NCBI GenBank assembly: GCA_951406725.2
Contig: OX597820.1
Span: 33,728,001 to 33,792,000 of the forward strand
Reading direction: 5' to 3'
Length of the DNA: 64,000 bases
Origin: Octopus vulgaris
Lineage: Eukaryota
The notes beneath the pieces were generated by a model that saw only the letters and a list, made by a program, of their open reading frames with translations, had not been told where the DNA came from and searched no databases. Position 1 is the stretch's first letter; each line of letters opens with the position of its first letter. Made by a program: the position numbers and the translations under genes. Of this stretch, positions 1,014 through 58,508 are shown in pieces.

Positions 1014-2690
1014 TTATTGCAAAGCTTCATGATAAACAACATTTTTGGTCTTCCCATTCGGGGTCAGTACAAACAGCTTATTTCCATTTCTAACCCTTGA
1101 ACAACCAGCATAGAGCTGGCCGTGAGAAAAGCAGAGTTCTATCAGATGAAGCCCTGTTACTGTTAATGATTGTCCTTGGGACTTATTGACTGACATTGCA
1201 TAGCCCACTCTCACTGGAAACTGAAGTCTTTTGAGCTCAAAACGAAGATCTGGAGAAATTAAGGGGATTCTTGGAATTAAATCTCTTTCCTCTTTTCTTA
1301 GACCAGTAAGGATCTCTACTTCCAAGAGATGACGAAGCATCTTCTTGACAATTAACCTTGTTCTGTTACAAAACTTTGGAGAATCCAGATTTCTTAATGA
1401 CATAACTGGTACATTTTCTTTTAGTTCCAGGTTGTGTGATGGCATTCCAGTAGGATTCAATGAGTTCAGGAACTCTGTTGATAATTCACTGCGTGCTCTT
1501 GTTCAGCCACAGTGTCAATGAAAATGTACTTCATGCTTTCTTTTGGAATTTCTTGGAGAGGTTTCCAGTTGATGCTATCCACAGTTTTATTCTTCATAGC
1601 TAATATGGCCGAATCCAAAAAATGATGTTTAATGTTTGGATAAACATGGTTAATCAAGTCTTGTCTACTTGAGATTGAAACTTGAGATTTGGGAGTGAAA
1701 TATCTCCATTTTGGTCCATCTTGATGGTTCCATTGCCAAGTTGCAACAACAAAGCAGCAAATCTTCATGTTTCAAGGTTACCCGTGATTCTAGCTTTCAT
1801 GTTTGTTTTCAGGCTGAGTGTTTGAACATTCTCCAGATGTAAGAATTATTCAGGCAAGCATTGGTTTCATCAACTGGAGTTCCTCTTGCAAAGACTTGTA
1901 ATGTTTGTCTAAGATCACCAGAGAATAGCATAGTGATACCTCCCATGATTTGTGAATTTTGTCTAATATCTTGGAGTATTTTGTCCAGAGTCTCAAATGC
2001 TCACTTCTTCCCAGACAATGAAGCTTGTCTCCTCCAGTAGCTTAGCCAAGTTGGTTCCTCTCTTGATATTGCAAATAGGGGTTCCATTGTAGTGCAAATC
2101 CAATGGAAGTTTGAAGGCACTGTGTGCTGTACGCCCTCCAGGCAAGAGAGTAGCAGCAATTCCAGATGATGCAACTGCTAGTGCTACTTTTCTTTGGAGT
2201 CTCACTGTAGATCAAAGAAGGTTAGTTATAAAATTTTTACCAGTAGTTCCAGGTGCATCCAAGAAGGCAATCCACCATTGTTGTTGTTGGTGTCATCAAG
2301 GACCTTCTGATACACTTGCTGTTGGTCTTGGTTCAACAGGAGCTCATTGTTTTAAACACACTGATGCAGTTCTTCCATGTTGTAGCCTATTTCTCTCAAA
2401 ATTTCTCTGTTGATTTGTCCAGTTACTCTGTTTTGCTTTAGCACACTAAAATTACCAAGATCTCTTTAAGCCAGGTTCATCACTTTGTCTTCAATTTCAC
2501 AGAGAACTAAATTTGCAGTCTGAGGATTCAATTCCAATCCTGGATGAGCAAGTCTCATTTAATGAAGAATATCTTCACTGAAAGCCTCCCAAAGAGTAAC
2601 TGGGTTGGAAAGTTTGCAGGTGGCAATCTTTACTGCAAACAGGTCCCTGACTTGTTTTGGAGAATTTGTTCCTCCAGAGTCATATTCCAA
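1014..2690 (-). mobile_element. Helitron Rep/Hel relic (PIF1-type helicase domain, frameshifted)
   Basis: Minus-strand ORF pieces carry PIF1 motifs: LDAPGTTGK-like Walker A, ASSGIAATLLPGGRTAHSAFKLP, RLQFPVRVGYAMSVNKSQGQSL, FSHGQLYAGCSRV, TKNVVYHEAL. Confidence 0.9.
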
Positions 2691-7780: not shown

Positions 7781-9233
7781 TTACTATTTTTTTTGCCCGA
7801 TTCATAATGACCAAAACAGAATTCTTTTGTTTTGGGAGGGGTTGTTGTCTGGAGTTGATAGGGTTGCACTGTTGAATATGGCATTAGTATATGATTTGCG
7901 GCTGTTGATTTTATAGTAGATATCTGGTTGACTTCTGAGTTTTGATGAAAGTCTGAACCAACACTGCCACTATAAGAGATGTCTTTCCTGTGGATCTGGT
8001 GGTGGTTTGAAGCCGTGATTTTACTAGTGCATCGAGTCCCTGGAGGATGAGTAAATGGGAATAGGAAAAAGTTTAGGATTCCGGGTTACATGTGCAGAAG
8101 TTATTAAGTGTGATTTAACATTTAATAGTGGTGTTGTTAAGCTGTGTGGTTTGACATTGGCTGGTATTGTTTGTATGAATTGTGCATCTTGTCCGAAGTA
8201 AATGGGTGAAGCTACAGTCACTGCACATGCATGGTCTCTCATGTTGAGAATAGCGGCATATTTGGGGTTCATAATTTTACTTTATTTAAAGTTAGCAAAT
8301 TTATCGTAGAGTGGACAGGTATAGATTCAGATTGAGGTGGATAGTGGTGGGGGTGTGGTTCTTCACTAATTGGAGTAGTAGCAGTAGAATAAGATGACAA
8401 TGGTGCTGATAGATCTCTTGTGTTATTCTGAGAAGAATTTGAATGGCCTGACAGTAGAGAAGAGCTAGAGATTGTGCTGTTTAATAATAGGTCATCAATT
8501 GTTCTAGTATTGAAGAATGACTGCCAATACTGATCTTATTGTTTAGTTGTGGTAAGGGTAATAGCAGTAGAACATAATGACAACGATGGATCACTTGTGG
8601 TATTTCAAGGAAATGAGAAAGTGGATAACTACACAGTGAAGGGCTCTTGATTGTGGAGTTTAATAGTTTATCAATTGTGGTAGTATTGAGGAGTGGCCGT
8701 GGTTGTTATATTATAATTCAATTTTTTTATGTTGAGGATGCTTTAGTTCAGTAATATATATTTGTAGGGATTTTCTTTTGAATTTATTTTTTCTAAGCCT
8801 GGGAAAGGTAAGTAGGGGGTTCAATACTGAAATTTGTACCCCACAAAATTTCAAGAGGTGCATCACTTGTTCCTGAGCCCTTGTGTGTGACACGTTTTGG
8901 CCATTATTTCTAGGAATTGAGTGACCATATTATAGTTGTTTTGTAATTTTGCATGTTAATCTATGCACCAAATCTCCATCTTAAATGTTTCTGAGCAGCA
9001 TAAGCTGGGTTAGAGAGTAGAGGCCAGTAGTAAACTGGCACTTTACAATAATGACCCCGAAAATATGAGAAGTAAAGTTCCCCCTCATTGATATTTGAAT
9101 GAAAACTCGTCATAGTCAGGTTATTTGACATGATAGTCACCAAACACAAAATTGTGAGTCTGTAAATAAACCCCTCAGAGAAGAGAGGTAATCAATTGTC
9201 TGTTTTTGGATTAATTTTATCTCCCTAGTGGGA

Positions 9234-9421
9234 GATGGGGTTGAATCCTGGAAGTACTGCTATACCAGGCCAACCCGTGGCAAAGGCGGAGCAAGCCCCT
9301 AACTCTTCGCCTCGTTCTAAAAATCAGTTTAATATCGATGGTCCCAAATAGGGACCATATCAGATATTAAGCTAAGAACATATACTACACTTTGATCTTA
9401 GCCAAAAGGCCGAGAAGCGAT
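9234..9421 (-). pseudogene. U2: U2 snRNA copy, damaged and cut off from its promoter by an insertion
   Basis: Reverse complement begins ATCGCTTCTCGGCCTTTTGGCTAAGATCAAAGTGTAGTA. Versus 43499-43688 it has a C>A just after the branch-site pairing region, a 3-nt deletion in stem IIa and 3'-end changes. Confidence 0.9.
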
Positions 9422-9424
9422 AAC

Positions 9425-11000
9425 GAAATCTTTATTATAGGCACGATGGCCCAAAAAATAGAGGGGACGATACAAAAACGGGACGTGGGGTACATAGAAT
9501 AAAATAAAATATGCATAATGAATTATATGGAATGTTTACAAGGCCCCCAAAACTCGTAAAATCATTTAAAATACAGTTCTGTTATACTGGGCGTTCATCT
9601 GTAATGTAATCTAATATTTCTTCCTGCTCTATTATTGCAGGCAAACCGTCATATCGAACATATTGCATTATACAAACAGTTGAAAAAACACTTTTCAATT
9701 TTAAAAATGTCTCTTTTTCTATTATCGCCGACTTTACTTTATCATCAAATATTTCTGGGTTTAGCCTAACTCTTATTAACCCTTTCTTACCTGCCAGTCT
9801 TTTTTCTATTTCTTTATCTTTCATGTATAAAATTACTACCTTGAGATTATTTCCTACTGGTCTTCTTCCTTCTTTACATGCTTTTAACTTCTCTGACACT
9901 TTCCTTTTCCATTTTTGGTCTATCGATGAATGTTCCGGTTCTATCTCTATCTCTTTTATTCTCTTATCTTCGTACATACTATCATCCTTTTCCTCTATAG
10001 TCTTATTTTTCGTTTTTTGAGCTGTAGTTGGTGATTCCACCCTCGCTCTTTTTCTATATTCTTTTCCATCTGTTTTTTTCTTTTTCTTTATCCAACTCTT
10101 CACCACTTTCTGTGTTTACACATTCTACCTTTTCCGTTTGCACTATATCTGTCTTGTTCAATGTTCTAGTCGGACATGCATCTTTCATGTGACCTCTTAT
10201 TTTGCACTTGTAGCACACTGGTGGTCTCCCCTCCACCATGACTCTCAGTAGAGTCTCATCGGGGAAAACTAACTCCTCTGGGATTTTATACAGATCAGGT
10301 ATGGTTATATGAATCAATACCTGCACTGCATAACCCCACCATTGTACATCTTTGGATTTTTTAACATTTAAAATTTCTACATTTTCTTTGCAGTTAAAAA
10401 CAACTGCTGCTAATATTCTTTCCATTTTTAGTTCTGGTGAAATTTTACTAATTCTTATTCTAACTGCTCTTTTCCCACGATAACTAGGTAATAATATCCA
10501 TTTTTCTGATTTTAATATTTGCATAGCGTTCTTCGCTTTTAAAATGGACGACAACTGTTGCATATTTTCTACCTCTGTTATAGAAGGTAGGTTCTCCTTC
10601 AAGTTTCTGCAGACAACATTCAATCTCCGCAATTTCTGCCAATTCTATTTTCTTTGAATGTACCTTCCATGTTCGGTATGTTATTATACGTTCAGCTTCT
10701 TTAGCTTCTTCTTCAGGTGGTGTAATCCTTACACAATCACCTTCTCTTTTTAAGCTGTCGAAGTAATTCTTTAAAATATCATTTTCTATTGTGACGTCTT
10801 CCAACTGTATTTCGTTTGTAGTTAATTCCTTGCTTGCCGCTCTTGCGTATGTTTGGGTTTGCATTTTGTGAAGAAGAAAAATTCCTCAACACCGCAAACA
10901 CTTCCAATAAATCATTCGAACTCTCACCACCGCCACTCAATATTAACGTAATCAATTCTCCGACACCAAAATAAGCAAAGCAAGGCCGGAAACACGTGCT
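9425..11000 (-). mobile_element. ORF1-only (HAL1-like) L1/Tx1-type non-LTR retroelement inserted at the U2 start
   Basis: Absent from the paralogous locus at 43483-43495. About 135-nt 5' UTR, a frameshifted ORF1 with a CX2CX4HX4C knuckle, a short 3' UTR with AATAAA, and no endonuclease or RT motifs. Confidence 0.75.
9582..10864 (-). pseudogene. Gag-like/ORF1 protein with CCHC zinc knuckle (two frameshifts)
   Basis: ORFs 10484-10864, 10054-10632 and 9582-10106 join into about 430 aa: N-terminal TYARAA motif, RVMVEGRPPVCYKCKIRGHMKDACP, then a basic/acidic linker, as in L1/Tx1 ORF1. Confidence 0.7.
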
Positions 11001-12183: not shown

Positions 12184-12420
12184 GGTTCTTTACCTTTTGA
12201 CCGACAGATTTAAAAAATATTTTTTGTAACTAAATACTTTCAAACTTCGTATACTTGTAGAATCTGTCACATAAAACATATTTTACTCTTGGCGTTGTTC
12301 AGAAAATTCTGTCTTTTGGAAGTTATTTTTTGTAAAATTTGTTGTTGACAAACAACTGCAGTAATTTTATTCAGCTGAATACACATCATTGATCGGTTGA
12401 AATTACCGAAATACGACAAC
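12184..12420. mobile_element. Single-arm fragment of the long-TIR MITE family seen at 27558-28139
   Basis: Starts GGTTCTTTACCTTTTGACCGACAGATTTAAAAAA, matching the TIR at 27558. Confidence 0.65.
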
Positions 12421-12649
12421 TTTATATATATATATATATATATATACCTATGCATATATGTGTATATATATATGTTAATATAAATGTATATATATATGTG
12501 CACATATATTTGTATACATACAGTTATATATATTTATGTTTGTATTTGTATGTATATATGTATGTACATAAATATATGTATATTTATGTCTATGTATATA
12601 TATATGTTTATATATACTTTATTTTAAGCAGCAGAAAATTCAACAAAAT

Positions 12650-24245: not shown

Positions 24246-24685
24246 TGTGTATGTGTATGTATGTATATATATATATCTTGCTTGTTTCAGTCATTGTACG
24301 ATGGTCATGCTAGAGCAATGCTTTGAAGAGTTCAGTTGAAAAAAATCAACCCAAGTAACCATTTTTTTTTAAAGCTTGCCACTTATTCTATCGCTTTCTT
24401 GTGCTGGAACACTATATTATGGGGACGCAAACAAACCAACACCGTTTGTGAAGAGGTGGTAGCGGGCTCTGAAAATGAATTTTCAATTTGTAGAAATATG
24501 TACCTAAAAACCAAAAGAACACCGATAAAACAAGTTTGATGTCGCAATAAATAAAGATTAGTGGCAAACTGATTTTTAAAAAATAAAAGAAAACTTCGTC
24601 AATTACAAAGCAGTTAGAGTTGTCGCCTATCAACTTAGAAGCGCAACAGGTTTATAGTGTCCAGCCCTCAAATTAGGTCATTCAA

Positions 24686-25249
24686 AACTTTCTGAAAATG
24701 CATATTATTTATTTAAATTTTGCAGCGATACGTTTTGAAGGATGTAGATTACAATTATGCCAATAAAATTTAGATACAGTTAATTTGTGGGAAGAAATTT
24801 TCCTTTCCCCATTGCCCTCATTTTCTGTGGTTTTAACAATTTTTACTCACTCAGCCCCACAAATTTCCGGGTTTCAAACATCAACAGGACATAAATTTAC
24901 CGTAAAAAGTCGGAGGTTGGCAGAAAAAGCTACCTAAAGTTACTTTTAAAATAATTTTTTTTCTAACCATAATGTTATGAACGTAATCGTTTATATACAC
25001 AACAGAAGCCGTAATTCCAGCAACACTTCTTTAAACATGCATTTTACAGAAAATTACGTAGAAAGACGGTCACTGAGATCACCAATCTCTAGCTTTGTCG
25101 AACTTTCTTATGAAGTGGAAAAAAGCCGGATAAAAAAAAAAGAAAGAAAAAAAAGTACACTTAGTAACAAAATATACAATAGTACAGGAATATTTTTCAT
25201 GCATGTGTATTTAAACGTGTGTATATTATATATATATATATATATGGTG
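24686..25249. repeat. Direct duplication partner of 29147-30674
   Basis: Near-identical to 29147-29450 and similar to about 30206-30250 and 30465-30674. Provides the empty site of the 29451 MITE. Confidence 0.85.
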
Positions 25250-25452: not shown

Positions 25453-25645
25453 GTGTGTGTGTATATATATATATATATATAAAATATTACATTATATAAT
25501 TAATTACTTTGCCACATACTGAACTTAGTAGAAATAGCAGCCAAAAAAATTTTTTTAGCTGTTTCTACTACTTTCTTTAAGTAGTAGAAACAGCTAAAAA
25601 AAATTCACTTGGTGAAATTGATTAATTAATTTTACCCTCAATTGT

Positions 25646-25678
<33 letters not shown>

Positions 25679-25777
25679 TGCAGCAGAAAAAACTCCCGTG
25701 TGTTTTCGGCAGTGTCCTTGCCAGGAGTAATAACGGTGTACCGATGTAATTAATGTTTTACTTTTTTTATGTTCTTT

Positions 25778-26578
25778 TCAGTTAGCTACACGACCGCTCT
25801 GTTGTCCGATCGCTTTCTCCACCAACACTTCCTTCGTTTTTATTTCTGAATTTTTCCAGTTGAAATATTTGTCGTGTATTTTTTTCGCATATCGAGTCGA
25901 ACCAATTTCATTAAATGCAACACATATCACTTCGTAATTCATATTATCGACGTAAGAATATTCTTTCCAATAGCAGAGCAGTTCGAAAACTCTCTCAAAA
26001 ATATCTACTTTACATTCCTCGGCAGTCCCACACACGTCCAAACCTCGACACTTAGCCAAAAAGATATGGTCAACACTTTCCGGTAGGAATTCCAAACGTC
26101 TACGAATATCTGCTACATCAGTTGGAACTAAAAAAAATCTCGGGTTCCATTCGGTGAAGTACCTACAGTGAAGCATTGTTATAAAATATGTAATCTGCGA
26201 AGATTTCTCAATAAGCTCAAAGGCCATCTCTATGATGAGTTCGTAAGAGGGGAAGGTGTTTACAATTTCACGCTTTTCGAAATCCGACTCCGCCACTGTA
26301 AAATTTTTATAGTCATCATATGATGGGAGCATAAATTTCTTTTTCATCTTCTTTTCTACGTCTTCAAGCTTACCGATGAAGCTTTTTATGCCATAGTTAG
26401 CGACATATCCTTCCATAAAGGTCTTCGACATTTCAACGAGTTCTGGATATTTTTCGGTGTTCACACGGTTGATACAATTTTTACTATAACCCAAATATAC
26501 AGCCAAAGACTTCACTTCACCTATGTCGTTGAAATACTGGGCAATTTTAGTAAAAAAGGCATCCTTTTCTAAAGCCAT
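25778..26578 (-). CDS. Intronless 266-aa protein with two death-domain-like regions
   Basis: Open frame from ATG 26578 (MALEKDAFF...). N-terminal KIAQYFNDIGEVKSLAVYLGYSKNCINRV..KYPELVEMS and C-terminal DIFERVFELLCYWKE...YEVICVAFNEIGSTRYAKKI follow death-domain helix patterns (by eye). Paralog at 31402-32952. Confidence 0.65.
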   Translation of the reverse strand: MALEKDAFFTKIAQYFNDIGEVKSLAVYLGYSKNCINRVNTEKYPELVEMSKTFMEGYVANYGIKSFIGKLEDVEKKMKKKFMLPSYDDYKNFTVAESDFEKREIVNTFPSYELIIEMAFELIEKSSQITYFITMLHCRYFTEWNPRFFLVPTDVADIRRRLEFLPESVDHIFLAKCRGLDVCGTAEECKVDIFERVFELLCYWKEYSYVDNMNYEVICVAFNEIGSTRYAKKIHDKYFNWKNSEIKTKEVLVEKAIGQQSGRVAN

Positions 26579-26630
26579 ATTATGGTTGTAGGAGACACAA
26601 GCATAAGATGTCAATGTCTGTTTGTAAAAT

Positions 26631-26638
26631 CCGGAAGT
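26631..26638. promoter_or_regulatory. ETS/GABP-type motif CCGGAAGT upstream of the death-domain-like ORF
   Basis: Exact consensus about 55 nt upstream of the ATG. An 8-mer could be chance. Confidence 0.25.
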
Positions 26639-26899
26639 ATAACGAATAAGTGAAAAACAAAATCAAATGAAGTACATAAGCTTTTTGATTCGCTCAGGCC
26701 GGCCTCGCGGTATGTTAGTTCCCTTTGACCTATTAAATTTACGTTATTTTTATTTCGATAATGCTCAATAGTTTTACAAAATTAAATTAGAAAATTGGAC
26801 AAAATAGAAAACACAAGCGAAAAAGTTTAAAAAGAGAAAAAACTCAAAACAATTCACCACCTTCGGTGGAAAAGTTGGGGTTGCTGGGGAAACCTCTCT

Positions 26900-27545
26900 A
26901 ATGGCTATTGAGGCACGCTTGCAGCATTGCCACGGGTGATGGCGAGGCTGATGTGATTGAACAGCTAAGTGCCCTCACGAGCATCACCAGTTACCTCTGC
27001 TAGGCGAGTTGCCAGTGAAGACAGGAATCTCGCAGTCAGTGGCCCGACTCCACCAAACGTCTCGAACGCCACAGGATGGGAAATGTAGTTGGCTGACAGA
27101 TTGCAGTATTTCAGGATTTTGTTCCGCTTAGCCACAGAAGCTGTGGATCTCGCCCTGACCGCAGCAGCCAGGATGTGAGAAGAAGCAAAGGAGTCGCTGT
27201 GACAGCCAAGACAAGGCATCTGCCTTATGACCAGGAGCACAGGGTGAAACCGTCAGGTCTTTTCCCATCACATCTGGACAATCCAGATGGTTCCAAGATT
27301 GAGGGGATGTTTTCCCCAGGCAAGCTCCTTTTGAGTATCGGGTTCAACTCTGTATGATGCACGAAGTGACCATCATTCAGGCGGCAAGAAATACCATGGA
27401 GGCCTGTGGAGTCGAGGAGTCTGTCACAACGACAGATCAAATCCATGCATATGTCAACTCCAACTCTGAGGGCAATGGAGACACGAAATTCGTCCAAGCT
27501 GAGTAGGCCACCAACATTAGCCATAAGGATGGCATCAATCTTGTC
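26900..27545 (-). mobile_element. CRE-clade (RLE-type) non-LTR retrotransposon 3' fragment
   Basis: FRVSIALRVG..C.C...D..GLHGISC, EPSGLSRCDGKRPDG, HPVAFETFGGVG, TGDARE, then a ISLAITRGNAAS-like terminus: the typical CRE restriction-like endonuclease C-terminus. Confidence 0.85.
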
Positions 27546-27557
27546 ACCTGAGTATTG

Positions 27558-28139
27558 GGACCTTTACCTTTTGATCTACAGATTTAAAAACTAATTTTTT
27601 TGTAACTAAACACTTTCAAACTTCGGACACTGGTAGAATGTGTCATATAAAACATCTTTTACTCTTAGCATTTTCGAGAAAAACTTATATTTACGAAGTA
27701 ATTTCACGTCAAAGTTGTCCTATTTCGGTAATTTCAACCAATCAATGACATGTATTCAGCTGAATAAAATTACTGCCGTTGTTTGTCAACAACAACTACT
27801 GGCAGTGTATTTTTTGTTTGTCACTGTTATTTATGACATCATTTGTGCATTTGTACTGGTTTTAGGGTTAGAGTTTTAGGGTTAGGGTGTTAGGGTTAAG
27901 GTTTTAGGGTTAGGGTTAAGATTGTCATAAATAACAGTGACAAACAAAAAATACACCGCCTGAAGTTCTTGTTGACAAACAACGGCAGTAATTTTATTCA
28001 GTTGAATACACATCATTGATTGGTTGAAATTACCGAAATAGGACTACTTTGACGTGAGATTACTTCGTAAATATCAGTTTTTCTCAAAAATGCTAAGAGT
28101 AAAAGATGCTTTATATGACACGTCAAAAGGTAAAGATCT
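27558..28139. mobile_element. Long-TIR MITE (Merlin-like) with central (TTAGGG)n-like tract
   Basis: Ends GGACCTTTACCTTTTGA / TCAAAAGGTAAAGATCT, flanks GAGTATTG / GAGTATTT (7 of 8 match), long inverted arms, TTAGGG units at about 27860-27920. Confidence 0.75.
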
Positions 28140-29450
28140 GAGTATTTGGCACTAGCAGAAATATTTGAGCTTAGGGCAAGATAGTTTTTTTTATAACCCT
28201 TGGTAAATAAGCTCTGGTCGAATAGGCCTATGATCAATGGCACTCCAGCCATGGCCATTCCATCTTTTTGCAATGTAACACGGACTACTTTATATTCAAG
28301 TTTACTGTAGCAGTGGCAAATTGCATGTGATTTGGTTGCTACATCTAGCAGATTTTGTGTAGTAATAAACAAGGGTATTGGTGCAGTTGAAGGCAAATAT
28401 CAGTATAGAGAGATGTAAGTGGCTCAGGAAGAATGGTTCAGAAGGGGTGGGTGAGGTGTGGAAGTGGTGAGGAGGGAGATCTAGAATACATAAGGGTGTA
28501 CATAAAGTGAGTGGGACATGGTGGGGGATATGAGAGAGGTGGTGAGAAAAATAGTAGATATGTGAGATGTTAAAATGGAGGATGGTAAAGGGGGGATATA
28601 ACTGAAGGCACAAAAAGGAGGTAGTTCATGAAAATGATGTGGATGAGAAAGGGAGGATAATGGGGAGAAGGGATTGAAGTAAGTCAGGGGGGAGTGGGTG
28701 AGATAACTGGAGGTTCTAAGCAAGGGATAGTAGTAATATGTGTTGATAATGCCCTCAACTGATTACAGCTGCCAAGAAGTGCCATAGATAGAGGAATTAT
28801 GGAGGGATAGGTGTTAGAGAAATAGAATGCGGAGGGGAATGCTTGACAGAGCAGAAGGGGTACAAGCATAAATAGAATGTTTTTAGGACATCATTTTTAC
28901 TGTTATGGACAGGTCAAATCCTTTGAAGATCTTTATCAGGTCCTTCTTAAATTTTTCCATAGTGTAGCCATTCATATGGTTTGAGATTGCCAGACCATTG
29001 TCCCTCTAAAGAGCCAACATGTATGAGTGTGCAATTCTAGAGGGTGTCCAAGATAAATAATTTGACAAGGTCAGCGATCTCAGCCCAGTTGTAATTACAT
29101 CACCATGGAAATGTCAAACAGTGAAATGCCTTCTTTCTTACCCCAGAACTTTCTGAAAATGCATATTATTTATTTGAATTTTGCAGCGATACGTTTTGAA
29201 GGATGTAGATTACAATTATGCCAATAAAATTTAGATACAGTTAATTTGTGGTAAGAAATTTTCCTTTCCCCATTGCCCTCATTTTCTGTGGTTTTAGCAA
29301 TTTTTACTCACTCAGCCCCACAAATTTCCGGGTTTCAAACATCAACAGGACATAAATTTACCGTAAAAAGTTGGAGGTTGGCAGAAAAAGCTACCTGAAG
29401 TTACTTTTAAAATAATTTTTTTTCTAACCATAATGTTATGAACGTAATCG

Positions 29451-30205
29451 GGATCTTTTCGCTTTGACCGGCAGATTTTTAAAATAATTTCTATGTAACT
29501 AAACACTTTTAAACTTTGTATACTGGTAGAATGTGTTTATAAAACATCTTTTTCTCTTGGCTTTCTTGAGAAAATTCTGTAGTTTTTAAGATATTTGTTG
29601 TTTAATTTCTTGCATTTCGGCAATTTCAACCAATCAATGACGTCTATTGAAGTGAATTCAATTTCTGCCGTAAAATTTTATGGCGGCGTCATGTGAAAAT
29701 GTCCCTTTACATATTATATATTCGTTTAAGAAACAGATTGGGTTTATTTACATTTCTATAGAAAAAAAGATACCCTCCCCCCACCCCAAACCCTAACTCT
29801 AACCCTAAAACAGATTGAAATGCAATAGATCGATACTACGGTCATAATTATGGGTAGACACTAAAGAGGGAACGGTTTTGTTATCCAGCTCTGTTTACGA
29901 GTGACCCCTCAGTTTATGGCCACAGGGTATCTTTTTTCTCATAAAAAACAGGGACATTTTCATATGATGCCGCCAGAAAATGTTACAGCAGAAATTGTTT
30001 TCACTTCAATAGACGTCATTGATTGGTTGAAATTGCCGAAATGCAAGAAATTAAACAACAAGTATCTTACAAATTACAGAATTTTCTCAAGAAAGCTAAG
30101 AGAAAAAGATGTTTTACAAACATATTCTACCAGTATACAAAGTTTAAAATTTTTTAGTTACATAGAAATTATTTTAAAAATCTGTCGGTCAAAGCGAAAA
30201 GATCC
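29451..30205. mobile_element. Long-TIR MITE (Merlin-like), 8-bp TSD CGTAATCG
   Basis: GGATCTTTTCGCTTTGACC...GGTCAAAGCGAAAAGATCC with arms of about 260 bp. TSD at 29443-29450 and 30206-30213; single-copy empty site at about 24982-24989. CCCTAA units inside. Confidence 0.9.
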
Positions 30206-30674
30206 CGTAATCGTTATCTGCACAACAGAAGTCGTATTCCAGCAACACTTTCCTTTCGTTACTGTATTTATTTTGAGATGCTCTCTGTTTCTTTCAATTA
30301 ATTTTAAATATAACAAATAATTTAGTAAAATAACTTAGTTATCATTCAGCTAGTATAAGGAATATAAATTGCTACTAAGGTTTAGTGGTATATTTTGATG
30401 CAAAACTTATGAAAACAAGACATTTGTACTACAGAGCCAGAGCCGGGTTGGTAACAAAAGGGTTACATGCGTTTTACAGAAAATTACGTAGAAAGATGGT
30501 CACTGAGATGTCAAACTTTCTTATGAAGTGGAAAAAAGCCGAATAAAAAAAAGAAGAAAGTACACTTAACAACAAACTGTACAATAGCACAGGAATATTT
30601 TTTATGAACATGTGCATTTAAACGTGTGCGTGTGTGTGTATATGTCTGTGTGTATATTATATATATACACGGTG

Positions 30675-31025
30675 GCAGACATTTGGTGGGGTCAGACTAC
30701 TCACTGCGAGATTCCTGTCTTCTCTAGCAACTTGTGAGGTTTGTGAGGACCATAGACAACGCTGCAAGCGTGCCTCAACAGCCTTTAGAGAGGTTTCCCA
30801 GCATCCCTGACTTTTCAACCTCAGGTGGTGAATTGTTTTAGTTCTTTTCTCTTTTTTTCTTTCTCTTTAATTTTTCAATTTTTTCAATCGTGTTCTCTAT
30901 TTTGTCCAATTTTCGAATTTAATTTTGTAAAACTATTGAGCATTGTCGAAATAAAAATAATGTGAATTTCATAGGTCAAAGGGAACTAACATACTGCGAG
31001 GCTGACCTGAGCGTATCAAAAAGCT
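30675..31025 (+). repeat. Inverted copy of the CRE 3' end and spacer upstream of the death-domain-like ORF
   Basis: Reverse complement of about 26678-27065, with an internal deletion. Confidence 0.85.
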
Positions 31026-31243
31026 TACTCTTTTACTCTTTTACTTGTTTCAGTCATTTGACTGCGGCCATGCTGGAGCACCACCTTTAATCGAGCAACT
31101 CGACCCCGGGACTTATTCTTTGTAAGTCCAGTACTTATTCTATCGGTCTCTTTTGCCGAACCGCTAAGTGACGGGGACATAAACACACCAGCATCGGTTG
31201 TCAAGCAATACTAGGGGGACAAGCACAGACACACAAACACACT

Positions 31244-31321
<78 letters not shown>

Positions 31322-31407
31322 TACGACAGGCTTCTTTCAGTTTCCGTCTACCAAATCCACTCACAAGGCTTTGGTCGGCCCGAGGCTATAGCAGAAGACA
31401 CTTGCCC
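31026..31407 (-). mobile_element. OR-like SINE, 5'-truncated
   Basis: Reverse complement of part of 549-974. ACTCTTTT tail units at the left end. Confidence 0.88.
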
Positions 31408-32952
31408 AGTATTTCAACGACATAGGTGAAGTGAAGTCTTTGGCTATATATTTGGGTTACAATAAAATCTGTATCAACCGTGTGAACATGGCCAAATATC
31501 CAGATCTCCTTGAAATGTCGAAGATCTTCATGAAAGGATATGTCGCTAACTATGGCATAATAAGCTTCGTCGATAAGCTTAAAAAGGTAGAAAAGAAGAT
31601 GAAAAAGATATTTATGCTCCCATCATGTAATTACTATGAAAAATTTACAGTGGCGGAGTTGGCTTTCAAAAATCGTGAATTTGAAACTACCTTCCCCTCT
31701 TACGAACTCATCATAGAGATGGCCTTCAAGCTTATTAAGAAACCTTCGCAGATTATAGATTTTTTTAACAAGTCTTCACTGTAGGTACTTCCACGAATGG
31801 AATCCAAGATTTTATCTCGTTCCAACTGATGTTGAAGATGTAGCATTTGGTGAAGCATATCTTCTCTCTCGGACATAAATAATACAAATAACGTCATGGC
31901 AGATAGCAGCCATCCTTCGGTTGCTTAGGCTATGTTGCGTCCACTGCCCTGATTGGTTGGTTTGGGTGCAGTTTTATTTTGTGCCAATGTATAAACCAAC
32001 CAATTGCAACCTTCAGTTAAGGCCACGTGACACTGTTTTTCTTATGCATTGTTTGAACCAACTAAACCCTTTAAAATGGCTAGATCGACAGACCATTTCA
32101 TCTTTGGTCTTAGACCATTGACCACAGAGTATCCAGTGACAGACCAGCCATGTTCCAGTGACTCAACCAGTTCCAGCGACGACACCAACACCTTTTCCAT
32201 CACCGTTGCCTTAAGCTTATCGACATCACCAACATGTCTACGTACACACCAACCAACATTGTTCCAGGTTTAACTTCACGCTGTTGTGAATACTCACCAA
32301 TGTTAACAGCTGCAGTCTACCTGCGAGAACTTTCTGTACCAAAGTAACTCGGCACATCATCGAGGCCACAACTTCTACACACGTAGTAATCGGCTCTGCA
32401 CTTGTGACCACCAACCTAACTGTGGTGTGTCTTACACCAAACTAGTATTTATCAACATCTTGTCCGAACATTCATCTAGCGATTCTTTTATAGACTCTTT
32501 CTATGCTCTGTATTGTATTGGCTCACACTTATCGCACACTCTACATGCACGTACACATTTTTCTATGCACGACGGCCTGTCTATTGGTTTATTATTATGT
32601 ACGTACTTTTATCGCACACACAGACACACTCTGCTAGCACACAGACATGCACTTATATCGCATGCACGTACACAATTACACACTGTTGTCGCACTCACGA
32701 ACACATCTGTAATAAAGTCTTTTCTCTTATACATTATACAGTTGTGTTTTTCTCTTTATTCTTTACTGGCATTCTTTATTCTTTTATTCCATGGATTTTG
32801 GCTTCTTTTGTAGACGACCGTGCGGTGTTTAAAAGGAGACATTTCGTTACCATCTCCTTTACGTACGGTCATCTCTACAAAGATATTCGTAGACGTTTGG
32901 AATTCCCACCAGAATTTTAGCTAAGTGTCGAGGTTCAGACATGTGTGGAACT
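31402..32952 (+). pseudogene. Disrupted paralog of the death-domain-like ORF
   Basis: KSLAIYLGYNKICINRVN...FPSYELIIEMAF aligns with 25778-26578. 5' end lost, frameshift, solo-LTR insertion, 3' truncation. Confidence 0.85.
31839..32879. mobile_element. Solo LTR (1041 bp), 4-bp TSD AAGA
   Basis: TGTAG...CTACA termini, AAGA at 31835-31838 and 32880-32883, internal AATAAA near 32710. Removing it restores collinearity with the intact paralog. Confidence 0.8.
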
Positions 32953-56430: not shown

Positions 56431-58508
56431 AGTAGTTGCATCAGTATATACAAGTGCATTTGCTACTGTTCTCACTGTACATTTATATATTATCTTCTTA
56501 CAATGGTATTCATTTTCCAGAGCATGTGTGTTCCTGTCCTTACAACTACAATTCTTTACCACATTGTCTTCCAATCAATCACAACCAGTCTTTCTTCCAC
56601 TTCTAACTTTTCCTTTATTGTTTTTGTGGTTATTATTAGTGCTCTTAGTATACTCTTCTTTGTTGCTGTTTCCATTACTACTATCACCAAGATTTTCAGC
56701 ATTTCAGTTATTACTCATATTATTTTTACCATCGTCTATTTCTATTAGAATTATTTGGAGTGCTTGATTTCTTTCTGCTTTACTTCTGCAATCCTTATCA
56801 GAAGGATTATTTTTATTTTTACCCCCACTAATGGCGTTAGTGATCTCCTAGTTTATCTTTCTATTTTCAGTTTATGAATATGATATTCTAAGTTATTAGA
56901 TGCTGCCTAATATAATTTCAATGTATGTTCATTAAAAATCTTGTGGTATTTATTAGATTTAGGAGAGCGCCTATCCAGCAAAGCAAAGAAGTCCTGGCAA
57001 TCTTGATAGTGAGCAGGCAGAACTATTAAGCACAACGGACAAAATACTTAACAGTTCTTTACATTCTGAGTTCAAATCTCATTGAGGTCAACTTTACCTT
57101 TGATCCTTTCAGGTTGATAAAAAATAAAGTACCAGTGAAGTAATGTTGTCCCATCTCCTCAAAATTGATGGCCTTGAGCCAAAATGAGAGAATCATTAAA
57201 CTGGTATTTGGAACATAAATTATCTGGAAATTTTGATGGAATGTTTTAATTTAGATCATTTTAAAGCATAAAATTGTTATCATAGACACAAAGGTAACCT
57301 CAGGAGAGTTGGTATCAAAAGGGTTAAATAAATATGACACTTGTTTATCACTGGTGTGAAGGTGTGTGGCCAACTGTTGGGCTCAGAATGATAAGATTGT
57401 AGGGCTCCTTCATCAGCTAGTCTAAGGTGAAGTTTATGTAAAAAGAAAAAGTGTTCACCTTGAGCCTACAGGTTCATGAAGCTTGTAGATTCAAGGTGGA
57501 TTTTCAAAGTGTTTAGGCTGAGCTTTTGATTTGAGACAAAGGGAGAAGACAGCCAACATAGTCAAGTGTCTTCTATCTTAGTCGCCAAATCATAATCTTG
57601 TGAGTGAAGTTACATCAACAAAAGCTATGCAGAAGTCTATTAGATGGGCTGTGCCTGTTTTAGAGTTCTATATGTAATCTGTTGCTTAGTTATTAAACAT
57701 CAGCAACTGTGAACATTTAGCAGAGTCCACTCTGTTGCATTCAAAGCAGATTTCTAGTCTAAGGATATCCTGTTCAAAATGAACATTTCTACTGTCAGCT
57801 TCAAACCAGCTGAAAAATAAGTGTCAATTTCATCAAGAGTTTACAAAGAGTGCTGGTTGTAAACAAATTGTGTTACAAATAACTCATTGTTATCTATGAC
57901 ATGAGAACATCATTTGGCAGATGAACCTGACTTAAAGCCACAGTTCTTTCCCATTTAGTTTGAGACTGGTTTCATAAATGTTTCTCATTAGTTTATAATA
58001 TTAGAATTACATATGAATTTGCTCTGTACTCTTTATATTGAGTGCTCTATATTTTCTTATTGATACTTGTTCAAAATGGGATGCCAGATGACACTAAGAA
58101 TCATTTTTGCATAATTTAGATGACAGTTTATTCACCACGCCCTGTATATATATATTTATATACATATATAAACTCCAGATGACACTAAGAATCACTTTCA
58201 GCTAAGTGTATTGGAGTAATGCAAAGGGAAAGACCTTACTTAAGGACATGTGCCATCTGGTTTGAGAAATGAACCCATGATCTAATTATCATGATAATGG
58301 TTACTACTGTAACTATTAGGTCTTCATCAGTTAACTAATATCAAAAAAACATTAAGTTGCTACAAACTTAGGTGTAGTCAGTTTTTCTCTACTTATGTAG
58401 TTAGTATTTGCATTTTGATTCAAAAGTCTAACTTCCCATGGAGGTGGGGCAAACTTTCCTGTACTTTAGCTATCATATATATATATATATAGATATATAT
58501 AGATATAG

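Follow-up and report, generated by a model that had tools for sequence, protein, structure and literature searches.

The window, which is the whole stretch of 64,000 nucleotides analysed here (Octopus vulgaris, contig OX597820.1), is overall repeat-rich animal DNA. The open reading frame (ORF) under study, P0001, is read from the minus strand and is placed between the decayed end of a retrotransposon and a (TA)n tract. The components of the locus, in the direction of reading, are:

27557..28138 (no strand), MITE with terminal inverted repeats and an 8-bp target duplication (TGAGTATT), bounding the detectable endonuclease remnant on its 5' side
26905..27554 (minus strand), decayed C-terminus with a zinc knuckle and a restriction-like endonuclease (RLE), the end of an RT-RLE non-LTR retrotransposon
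26579..26904 (minus strand), T-rich spacer of 326 nt
25778..26578 (minus strand), P0001 ORF of 266 aa, intact, with a single coding exon and predicted tandem death domains
25648..25676 (no strand), (TA)n tract, 101 nt past the ORF stop

The ATG of P0001 is at 26578, its codons extend from 26578 to 25781 and the stop occupies 25780-25778. The coding sequence is one uninterrupted ORF, collinear along its full length with those of two homologues, P0002 and P0003. An earlier, sequence-only reading of this DNA had called the gene intronless, which holds for the coding sequence of P0001 and is claimed here for the coding sequence alone. The CpG observed/expected ratio is 1.28 in the ORF, 1.10 in the spacer, 0.51 in the RLE piece and 0.49 in the whole window, and 3 of 158 segments of 800 nt reach 1.28. 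The intact and CpG-rich ORF of 266 aa that had been reported is therefore present as described. The claim that it is the sole long intact ORF of the window outside the transposable elements (TE) agrees with a Pfam scan of sixteen other ORFs: Pfam matched four to RT, one to Pif1 and one to a zinc knuckle and left ten without a match, and by eye the others are low-complexity or TE fragments, except for a fragment of the second copy of the locus.

The ORF starts 326 nt past the first RLE stop (26907-26905), on the same strand, and ends 101 nt before the (TA)n tract, in agreement with the earlier estimates of about 320 and about 100 nt. The tract itself carries little weight as evidence, since the window contains 41 tracts of (TA)6 or longer, and for 6% of its positions such a tract is no more than 110 nt away in that direction. 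In the spacer, the last CAG follows a pyrimidine tract about 40 nt upstream of the ATG. This CAG is a possible splice acceptor, which would place the RLE remnant in an intron. A retroposed immune gene, which the earlier reading had also suggested, is a possible origin. Of the signs of a retrogene, the intronless coding sequence is present, whereas no AATAAA, ATTAAA or A tail occurs in the 141 nt past the last codon. Part of 25700-27560 is contained in 20 of the 24 sequencing runs listed, from 10 studies and four organisms; 11 of those runs were guessed to be RNA (share 0.48-0.53) and none is listed as RNA on record.

The protein encoded by P0001 is predicted to consist of two death domains (DD) without an effector domain. 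In the predicted models these domains cover residues 3-242 of 266, as follows:

26294..26572 (minus strand), death domain 1, residues 3-95, pLDDT mostly 70-90
25853..26263 (minus strand), death domain 2, residues about 106-242, from the separately folded half 105-245
26006..26164 (minus strand), low-confidence stretch within death domain 2, residues 139-191, which includes about 45 residues beyond a standard DD

The AlphaFold model, built with three sequences, has a mean pLDDT of 56.5; its confidence is good up to about residue 100, from about residue 4, and poor in the remainder. The C-terminal 142 residues folded alone reach a mean pLDDT of 58.6. The halves were compared structurally with 48,161 chains, and the 50 best matches of each were listed. 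The model of the N-terminal half is best matched by the DD of ankyrin-G (4o6x, Z 9.4, rmsd 2.5, 91 aligned residues); its best seven matches are all DDs and its best DED match is at most Z 6.2. For the C-terminal half the best match is the DD of FADD (3ezq_B, Z 9.4, rmsd 3.2, 96 aligned residues), followed by 2of5_H (Z 9.3). The viral MC159 vFLIP is third for this half, with a Z of 8.5 that ties with the best DD matches, and the weak Pfam match to Death favours a DD. Death-fold titles make up 46 of the 50 best matches of the N-terminal half and 47 of the 50 of the C-terminal half, a count that includes some titles which we take to be death-fold proteins from their domain content.

The Pfam Death match lies at residues 186-236 of P0001 (17.1 bits, E 0.006), below the PF00531 cut-off of 22.6, and no such match was found in P0002 or P0003. 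Foldseek gave no match with E below 0.001 in PDB or BFVD; its PDB ranking has DDs at or near the top, with E about 1. For helical bundles, a Z of about 9 is a moderate score. Given this Z and the Foldseek E, the assignment to the death fold depends on how consistent the match lists are and on the independent, weak Pfam match. The tandem death-domain call of the earlier reading is supported by the two halves, each folded separately as a predicted model. In sequence the halves are not similar to one another, since 282 of 500 shuffles reach an equally good score. Residues H137, C138, C183 and C189 are invariant in all three sequences, and one may guess at a metal site there.

An exhaustive phmmer search of 1.84 billion representatives returned two relatives of P0001. 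P0002 has 262 aa, is 76-77% identical to P0001 and comes from Logan without a name. P0003 has 264 aa, is 44% identical to P0001 and is entered as ‘hypothetical protein Ahia01_001097300’ of Argonauta hians (GAB1608131.1). The three proteins align end to end, all start in the same Met region and form clusters of one member each; NCBI and UniRef already list P0001 among their predicted sequences. Argonauta, the paper nautilus, is an octopod, and on present finds the family of P0001 and its two relatives is likely restricted to octopods. Word-index searches with P0001 and with a three-row profile gave no further relative of similar length. Longer forms of P0001 were absent from the 7843 candidates of a word-index search among longer proteins, which is weak evidence. 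No related loci were found in viral or metagenome contigs, and searches of PDB sequences gave nothing below E 0.1. The ESM Atlas matches are all under 0.9 and some carry Death families; they serve as leads only. The octopod DD-DD protein family is real and apparently undescribed, with no earlier description in the partial texts of the literature searched, which omits most subscription journals.

A second copy of the locus lies some distance away in the window, next to a duplicate of the sequence that flanks the first copy:

24683..25246 (plus strand), flank A, found past copy 1 in the 3' direction (its far side), with a direct duplicate at 29144-30668
29144..30668 (plus strand), flank A', matching A over three parts (98%, 92% and 92% identity), containing a MITE at 29451-30205 and abutting copy 2
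30668..32952 (plus strand), copy 2, inverted and broken duplicate of the RLE end, the spacer and the ORF

At the DNA level copy 2 is 88% identical to copy 1 in the ORF part and 90% in the RLE end and spacer. It keeps about 130 nt of the RLE end and stops near codon 185. A SINE at 31028-31401 replaces 132 nt of it, including the ATG, so that the first 11 codons are lost. A frameshift is present near 31760, and the copy is split by an insertion of 1041 nt (31839-32879), which is bounded by TGTAG...CTACA and accompanied by a 4-bp duplication of AAGA. This insertion, single in the window, is likely a solo LTR. The join to the RLE lies at a 5-nt overlap, GTGGC, which is common to the RLE and to the start of the MITE end present at that point in copy 1. 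The order of RLE end, spacer and ORF reported for the second copy is thus confirmed; the copy is, however, on the opposite strand and broken by the SINE, the frameshift and the LTR-like insertion.

From its sequence context, copy 2 is likely a local inverted duplication at the DNA level that broke later, and not an independent insertion, since an independent retrotransposition would hardly be expected to insert, in inverted orientation, next to a duplicate of the flank of its own donor. A template switch, or a tandem duplication with an inversion, would fit as the route. Because copy 2 abuts the duplicated flank, it is uninformative about mobility. The window holds another inverted duplication, with 93-97% identity.

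The first part of the two flanks (24683-24989 and 29144-29450) is 98% identical over 307 nt and the adjoining part 92%, with the step at the MITE insertion; a gene-conversion tract might account for it. The two MITEs of the region, at 27557-28138 and 29451-30205, are related and have long inverted arms and 8-bp duplications (TGAGTATT and CGTAATCG). Both are presumably hAT-like, judging from the length of the target duplication. Further pieces of the same MITEs lie near 12184-12423.

Over 632 nt the RLE piece is disrupted three times, whereas the 798 nt of the ORF are free of disruptions (P 0.02 at equal rates). Under neutral substitution, indels aside, the ORF stays free of stops in 9% of the runs at 6% divergence and in 1% at 12%. 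Between the two copies, a comparison that the earlier reading had proposed, the dN/dS is 1.04 over 140 codons (10 synonymous and 39 non-synonymous changes), which leaves no net purifying signal. Private changes at constrained sites number three in copy 1 and four in copy 2. Of the 65 positions at which P0002 and P0003 are identical, 9 differ between the copies, as do 25 of the other 73 (Fisher p 0.006, a value that is biased if P0002 nests between the copies). At 16 of 138 positions all three close sequences differ from one another, whereas neutral star simulations give about 6 such positions (P at most 0.001). These numbers are best explained by a constrained core together with hypervariable sites, a pattern that copy 2 would have shared until it broke. 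A recent relaxation of the ORF is the less likely reading of them.

The sequence upstream of the spacer aligns from 27554 to 26923 with residues 735-946 of an RT-bearing ORF from the metagenome locus L018 (tblastn, 40% and 38% identity, E 1e-35). It carries two in-frame stops and one frameshift, and the sequence on the upstream side of the MITE (27557-28138) gives no alignment. Judged by this alignment, by the stops and the frameshift and by the lack of any match beyond the MITE, the piece is a true but dead C-terminal remnant, about 0.65 kb long, of an RT-RLE element. Like the RLE non-LTR retrotransposons, it has a C-terminal zinc knuckle and a PD..D endonuclease and aligns to the ends of RT ORFs; unlike them, the window copy is a dead end of 0.65 kb without RT. 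Its assignment to the CRE clade is our assumption from the shape of the motifs. A CCHC knuckle and an RLE at the end of the RT ORF are common to all RLE clades, and among proteins of solved structure those of R2 come closest to L018 (E 2e-6). Five such clades, CRE, R2, R4, NeSL and HERO, are distinguished in passages of PMC4640811. A fusion of the death domains with the RLE was also considered and is rejected, since the open frame begins at 26662 and the protein start is the same in the two homologues.

Relatives of the element were represented by 121 of about 3900 metagenome loci, fetched by a degenerate endonuclease-motif pattern. None of them is known as octopod, so that they inform on the wider family and not on the local lineage. 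The RLE fragment of the window matches 111 of the 121, and two loci carry long ORFs with RVT_1. The same pattern gave no matches in viral contigs. A terminal hairpin of 7 bp is present in 18 of the 43 loci with at least 560 nt past the motif, at a median of 438 nt after DGKRPDG, and is followed by an A/AAT tail in 17 of these 18 and by (TA)n in none. The hairpin consensus is CCCTCGG, an 11-nt loop and CCGAGGG, right before the A/AAT tail (L001, L002, L015, L073 and 14 more).

The ends were aligned in 17 rows, namely the 18 hairpin loci minus L037 (arms unmatched) and L066 (a near-copy of L026), plus L018. A covariance model (CM) of these ends found nothing significant in the window, with no match below E 0.6. 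A matrix for the right hairpin arm and the tail points to one site behind the ORF:

25622..25639 (minus strand), 18-nt site resembling the right hairpin arm and the tail, 139 nt past the ORF stop, which may be due to chance

The site at 25639 is the second best of the window for this matrix, with a P of about 0.005 per 300-nt stretch that is post hoc, six region-matrix pairs having been tried after the fact. The best site is at 56826, far from any RLE, and the fifth, at 28201, has a P of 0.01. Counted as a pattern, the right arm with its tail occurs twice, against 1.24 expected. Another candidate for the element end, the spacer motif GGGA-n7-TACYG at 26708-26723, is not borne out (3 matches against 1.86 expected, matrix P 0.23); it is kept in copy 2 too, its folding z is about +0.8 to +1.1 and the covariance model of the ends gives nothing significant there.

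These results bear on the suggestion, made from the sequence alone, that the ORF is a cargo of the retrotransposon. P0001 would then have been carried by an octopod CRE-like element, either as a second 3' ORF or by 3' transduction, and afterwards kept by the host. We regard this as unlikely. The co-orientation of the ORF, its position 326 nt past the RLE stop and its intronless coding sequence are consistent with carriage, as are the dN/dS of about 1 between the copies and the fact that the terminal hairpin of the relatives, about 440 nt after DGKRPDG, is absent at the matching place in the window. The tail-like site at 25622..25639 is the best, albeit weak, indication in the sequence of such an origin, but its matrix also scores 28201 and, best of all, 56826. 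The (TA)n tract, moreover, is not the tail type of the RLE relatives. Death-domain profiles were found behind none of the 121 metagenome RLE loci, 22 of which have at least 1.4 kb downstream, where the longest same-strand ORF is 144 aa. The family has three members in protein collections, and copy 2 does not count as an independent insertion, with the flank of copy 1 common to both copies within the window. The suggestion is therefore weakly supported: copy 2 is best explained as a local duplication, decay is seen in the RLE but not in the ORF, and none of the 121 loci carries the ORF. The opposite case, that adjacency was only preserved by local duplication, had been named beforehand and is the best explanation of copy 2.

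A more specific version, in which an octopod CRE-like lineage carries or carried the DD-DD ORF between its endonuclease and its 3' tail, where the protein would dampen the cell-death or immune responses of the host, and in which the host kept one copy, seems quite unlikely. The tail-like site 139 nt past the stop would in that case be the true end of the element. If carriage were true in either version, the locus would document a LINE-type element with a death-domain gene. No RLE element with death-domain cargo is described in the literature searched, which is without the Repbase reports, and the part of PMC2887409 consulted adds none.

That the ORF is recently relaxed and dying, or is a dead TE passenger left open by luck, is improbable. 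The dN/dS of 1.04, together with private changes at constrained sites almost as numerous in copy 1 as in the broken copy 2 (3 and 4), would agree with decay; on the other hand, an ORF of this kind survives neutral change free of stops in 1-9% of runs, indels aside, its changes avoid the constrained sites and the neighbouring RLE has three disruptions. That the gene is a death-fold decoy captured from a large DNA virus, in the manner of vFLIP or the poxviral POPs, is very improbable: an intronless and CpG-rich ORF without relatives outside octopods would suit such an origin, as would the third place of MC159 vFLIP for the C-terminal half, but the viral search gave no support, with no viral relative by sequence, viral contigs included, no BFVD match below E 1 in the fold search and no virus-like gene recognised among the window ORFs scanned, although the absence of a viral relative weighs little since mollusc viruses are poorly sampled.

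The reading preferred here, which we hold probable, is an octopod host gene that lies beside a dead retrotransposon piece and was duplicated locally. The homologues have nearly the same length as P0001, the ORF is intact next to a decayed RLE and the rates of change are uneven among its sites. The dead RLE piece would be an old neighbour of the gene and not its carrier.

Death domains act through homotypic contacts, and a pair of DDs without an enzyme either bridges two DD partners or caps or competes in a DD assembly. As the product of a host gene, the P0001 protein would join death-domain signalling complexes through homotypic DD-DD contacts. There it may serve as a decoy in receptor or apoptotic DD complexes, or modulate them, and so tune cell-death or immune signalling, the role to which we incline by analogy. 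A second role within the host-gene reading, that of an adaptor bridging two DD partners, is proposed tentatively and is the less probable. The decoy or modulator is favoured because the lineage restriction, the single coding exon, the fast change and the birth-and-death duplication resemble those of the POP and COP proteins. With death domains alone and no effector, the protein is likely to be a tuner of cell-death or immune signalling.

Two proteins with a comparable layout, cFLIP-S and the viral vFLIP MC159 (2f1s, 2bbz), function as tandem-DED decoys. They share with the octopod protein two tandem death-fold domains and the lack of a catalytic domain. Their domains are DEDs, whereas the octopod N-terminal half is closer to DD (Z 9.4) than to DED (at most 6.2), and no sequence similarity of P0001 to cFLIP-S or MC159 was found. 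The primate PYD-only and CARD-only proteins are proposed as competitive inhibitors of signalling complexes (PMC3775265 and PMC3056782, both in part), and the POP2 gene has a single exon and is likely of retrogene origin (PMC3056782, in part). POP1, POP2, COP, INCA and ICEBERG resemble the octopod protein in having death-fold domains only and in being lineage-restricted and recent (sections of PMC3775265). They differ in having a solitary PYD or CARD, whereas the octopod protein has two domains that are best matched to DD, an insertion of about 45 residues in the second one and a mollusc host.

FADD, CRADD/RAIDD and TRADD are, like the octopod protein, small two-domain death-fold proteins, and the DDs of FADD, RAIDD and TRADD are among the structural matches; these adaptors, however, combine their DD with a domain of another kind, such as a DED or a CARD. 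Bipartite DD adaptors are conserved across molluscs (PMC11463336, in part), whereas the octopod DD-DD protein evolves fast and has no relative found outside octopods. Within the same portion of that source, molluscs including a cephalopod have FADD and CRADD, and TRADD and PIDD were not detected in lophotrochozoans. FADD and CRADD are possible partners of the octopod protein. If the host-gene reading is true, octopods have a death-domain-only family of their own that goes uncalled by Pfam. The family would combine a DD-DD layout, which is unusual, with an insertion that bears Cys and His, and would turn over rapidly by duplication. Such a family would be a mollusc parallel to the primate POP and COP proteins and a candidate for the study of cephalopod immunity and cell death.

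Other features of the window were recorded along with the locus. Past the stop of P0001, at 25686-25732 on the minus strand, a decayed minimal hammerhead ribozyme was considered by eye and rejected; Rfam has no hammerhead match there at E up to 10, and the folding z of the hammerhead-like 3' flank is -0.7 to -2.0 (-2.0 for 25686-25732). A near-perfect palindrome of 53 nt lies at 25550-25602, where sub-threshold Rfam miRNA matches reflect the hairpin only.

Two U2 snRNA genes score above the Rfam cut-off, at 9231-9421 on the minus strand (158.5 bits) and at 43499-43692 on the plus strand (184.7 bits). Both are inside an inverted segmental duplication, at about 5.9-12.2 kb and 42.3-45.8 kb, the main blocks of which are 93-97% identical. 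Directly 5' of the first U2 gene, about 1.6 kb (9425-11000, minus strand) are absent from the second copy of the duplication. This segment holds broken ORFs, one of them with a weak zinc knuckle (E 0.0015), and resembles a LINE ORF1 remnant. Elements associated with U2 are known, namely Utopia (PMC4640811, in part). At the start of the window, a fragment of the 2B domain of a Pif1 helicase (1014-1502, minus strand, E 1e-12) is likely the remnant of a Helitron.
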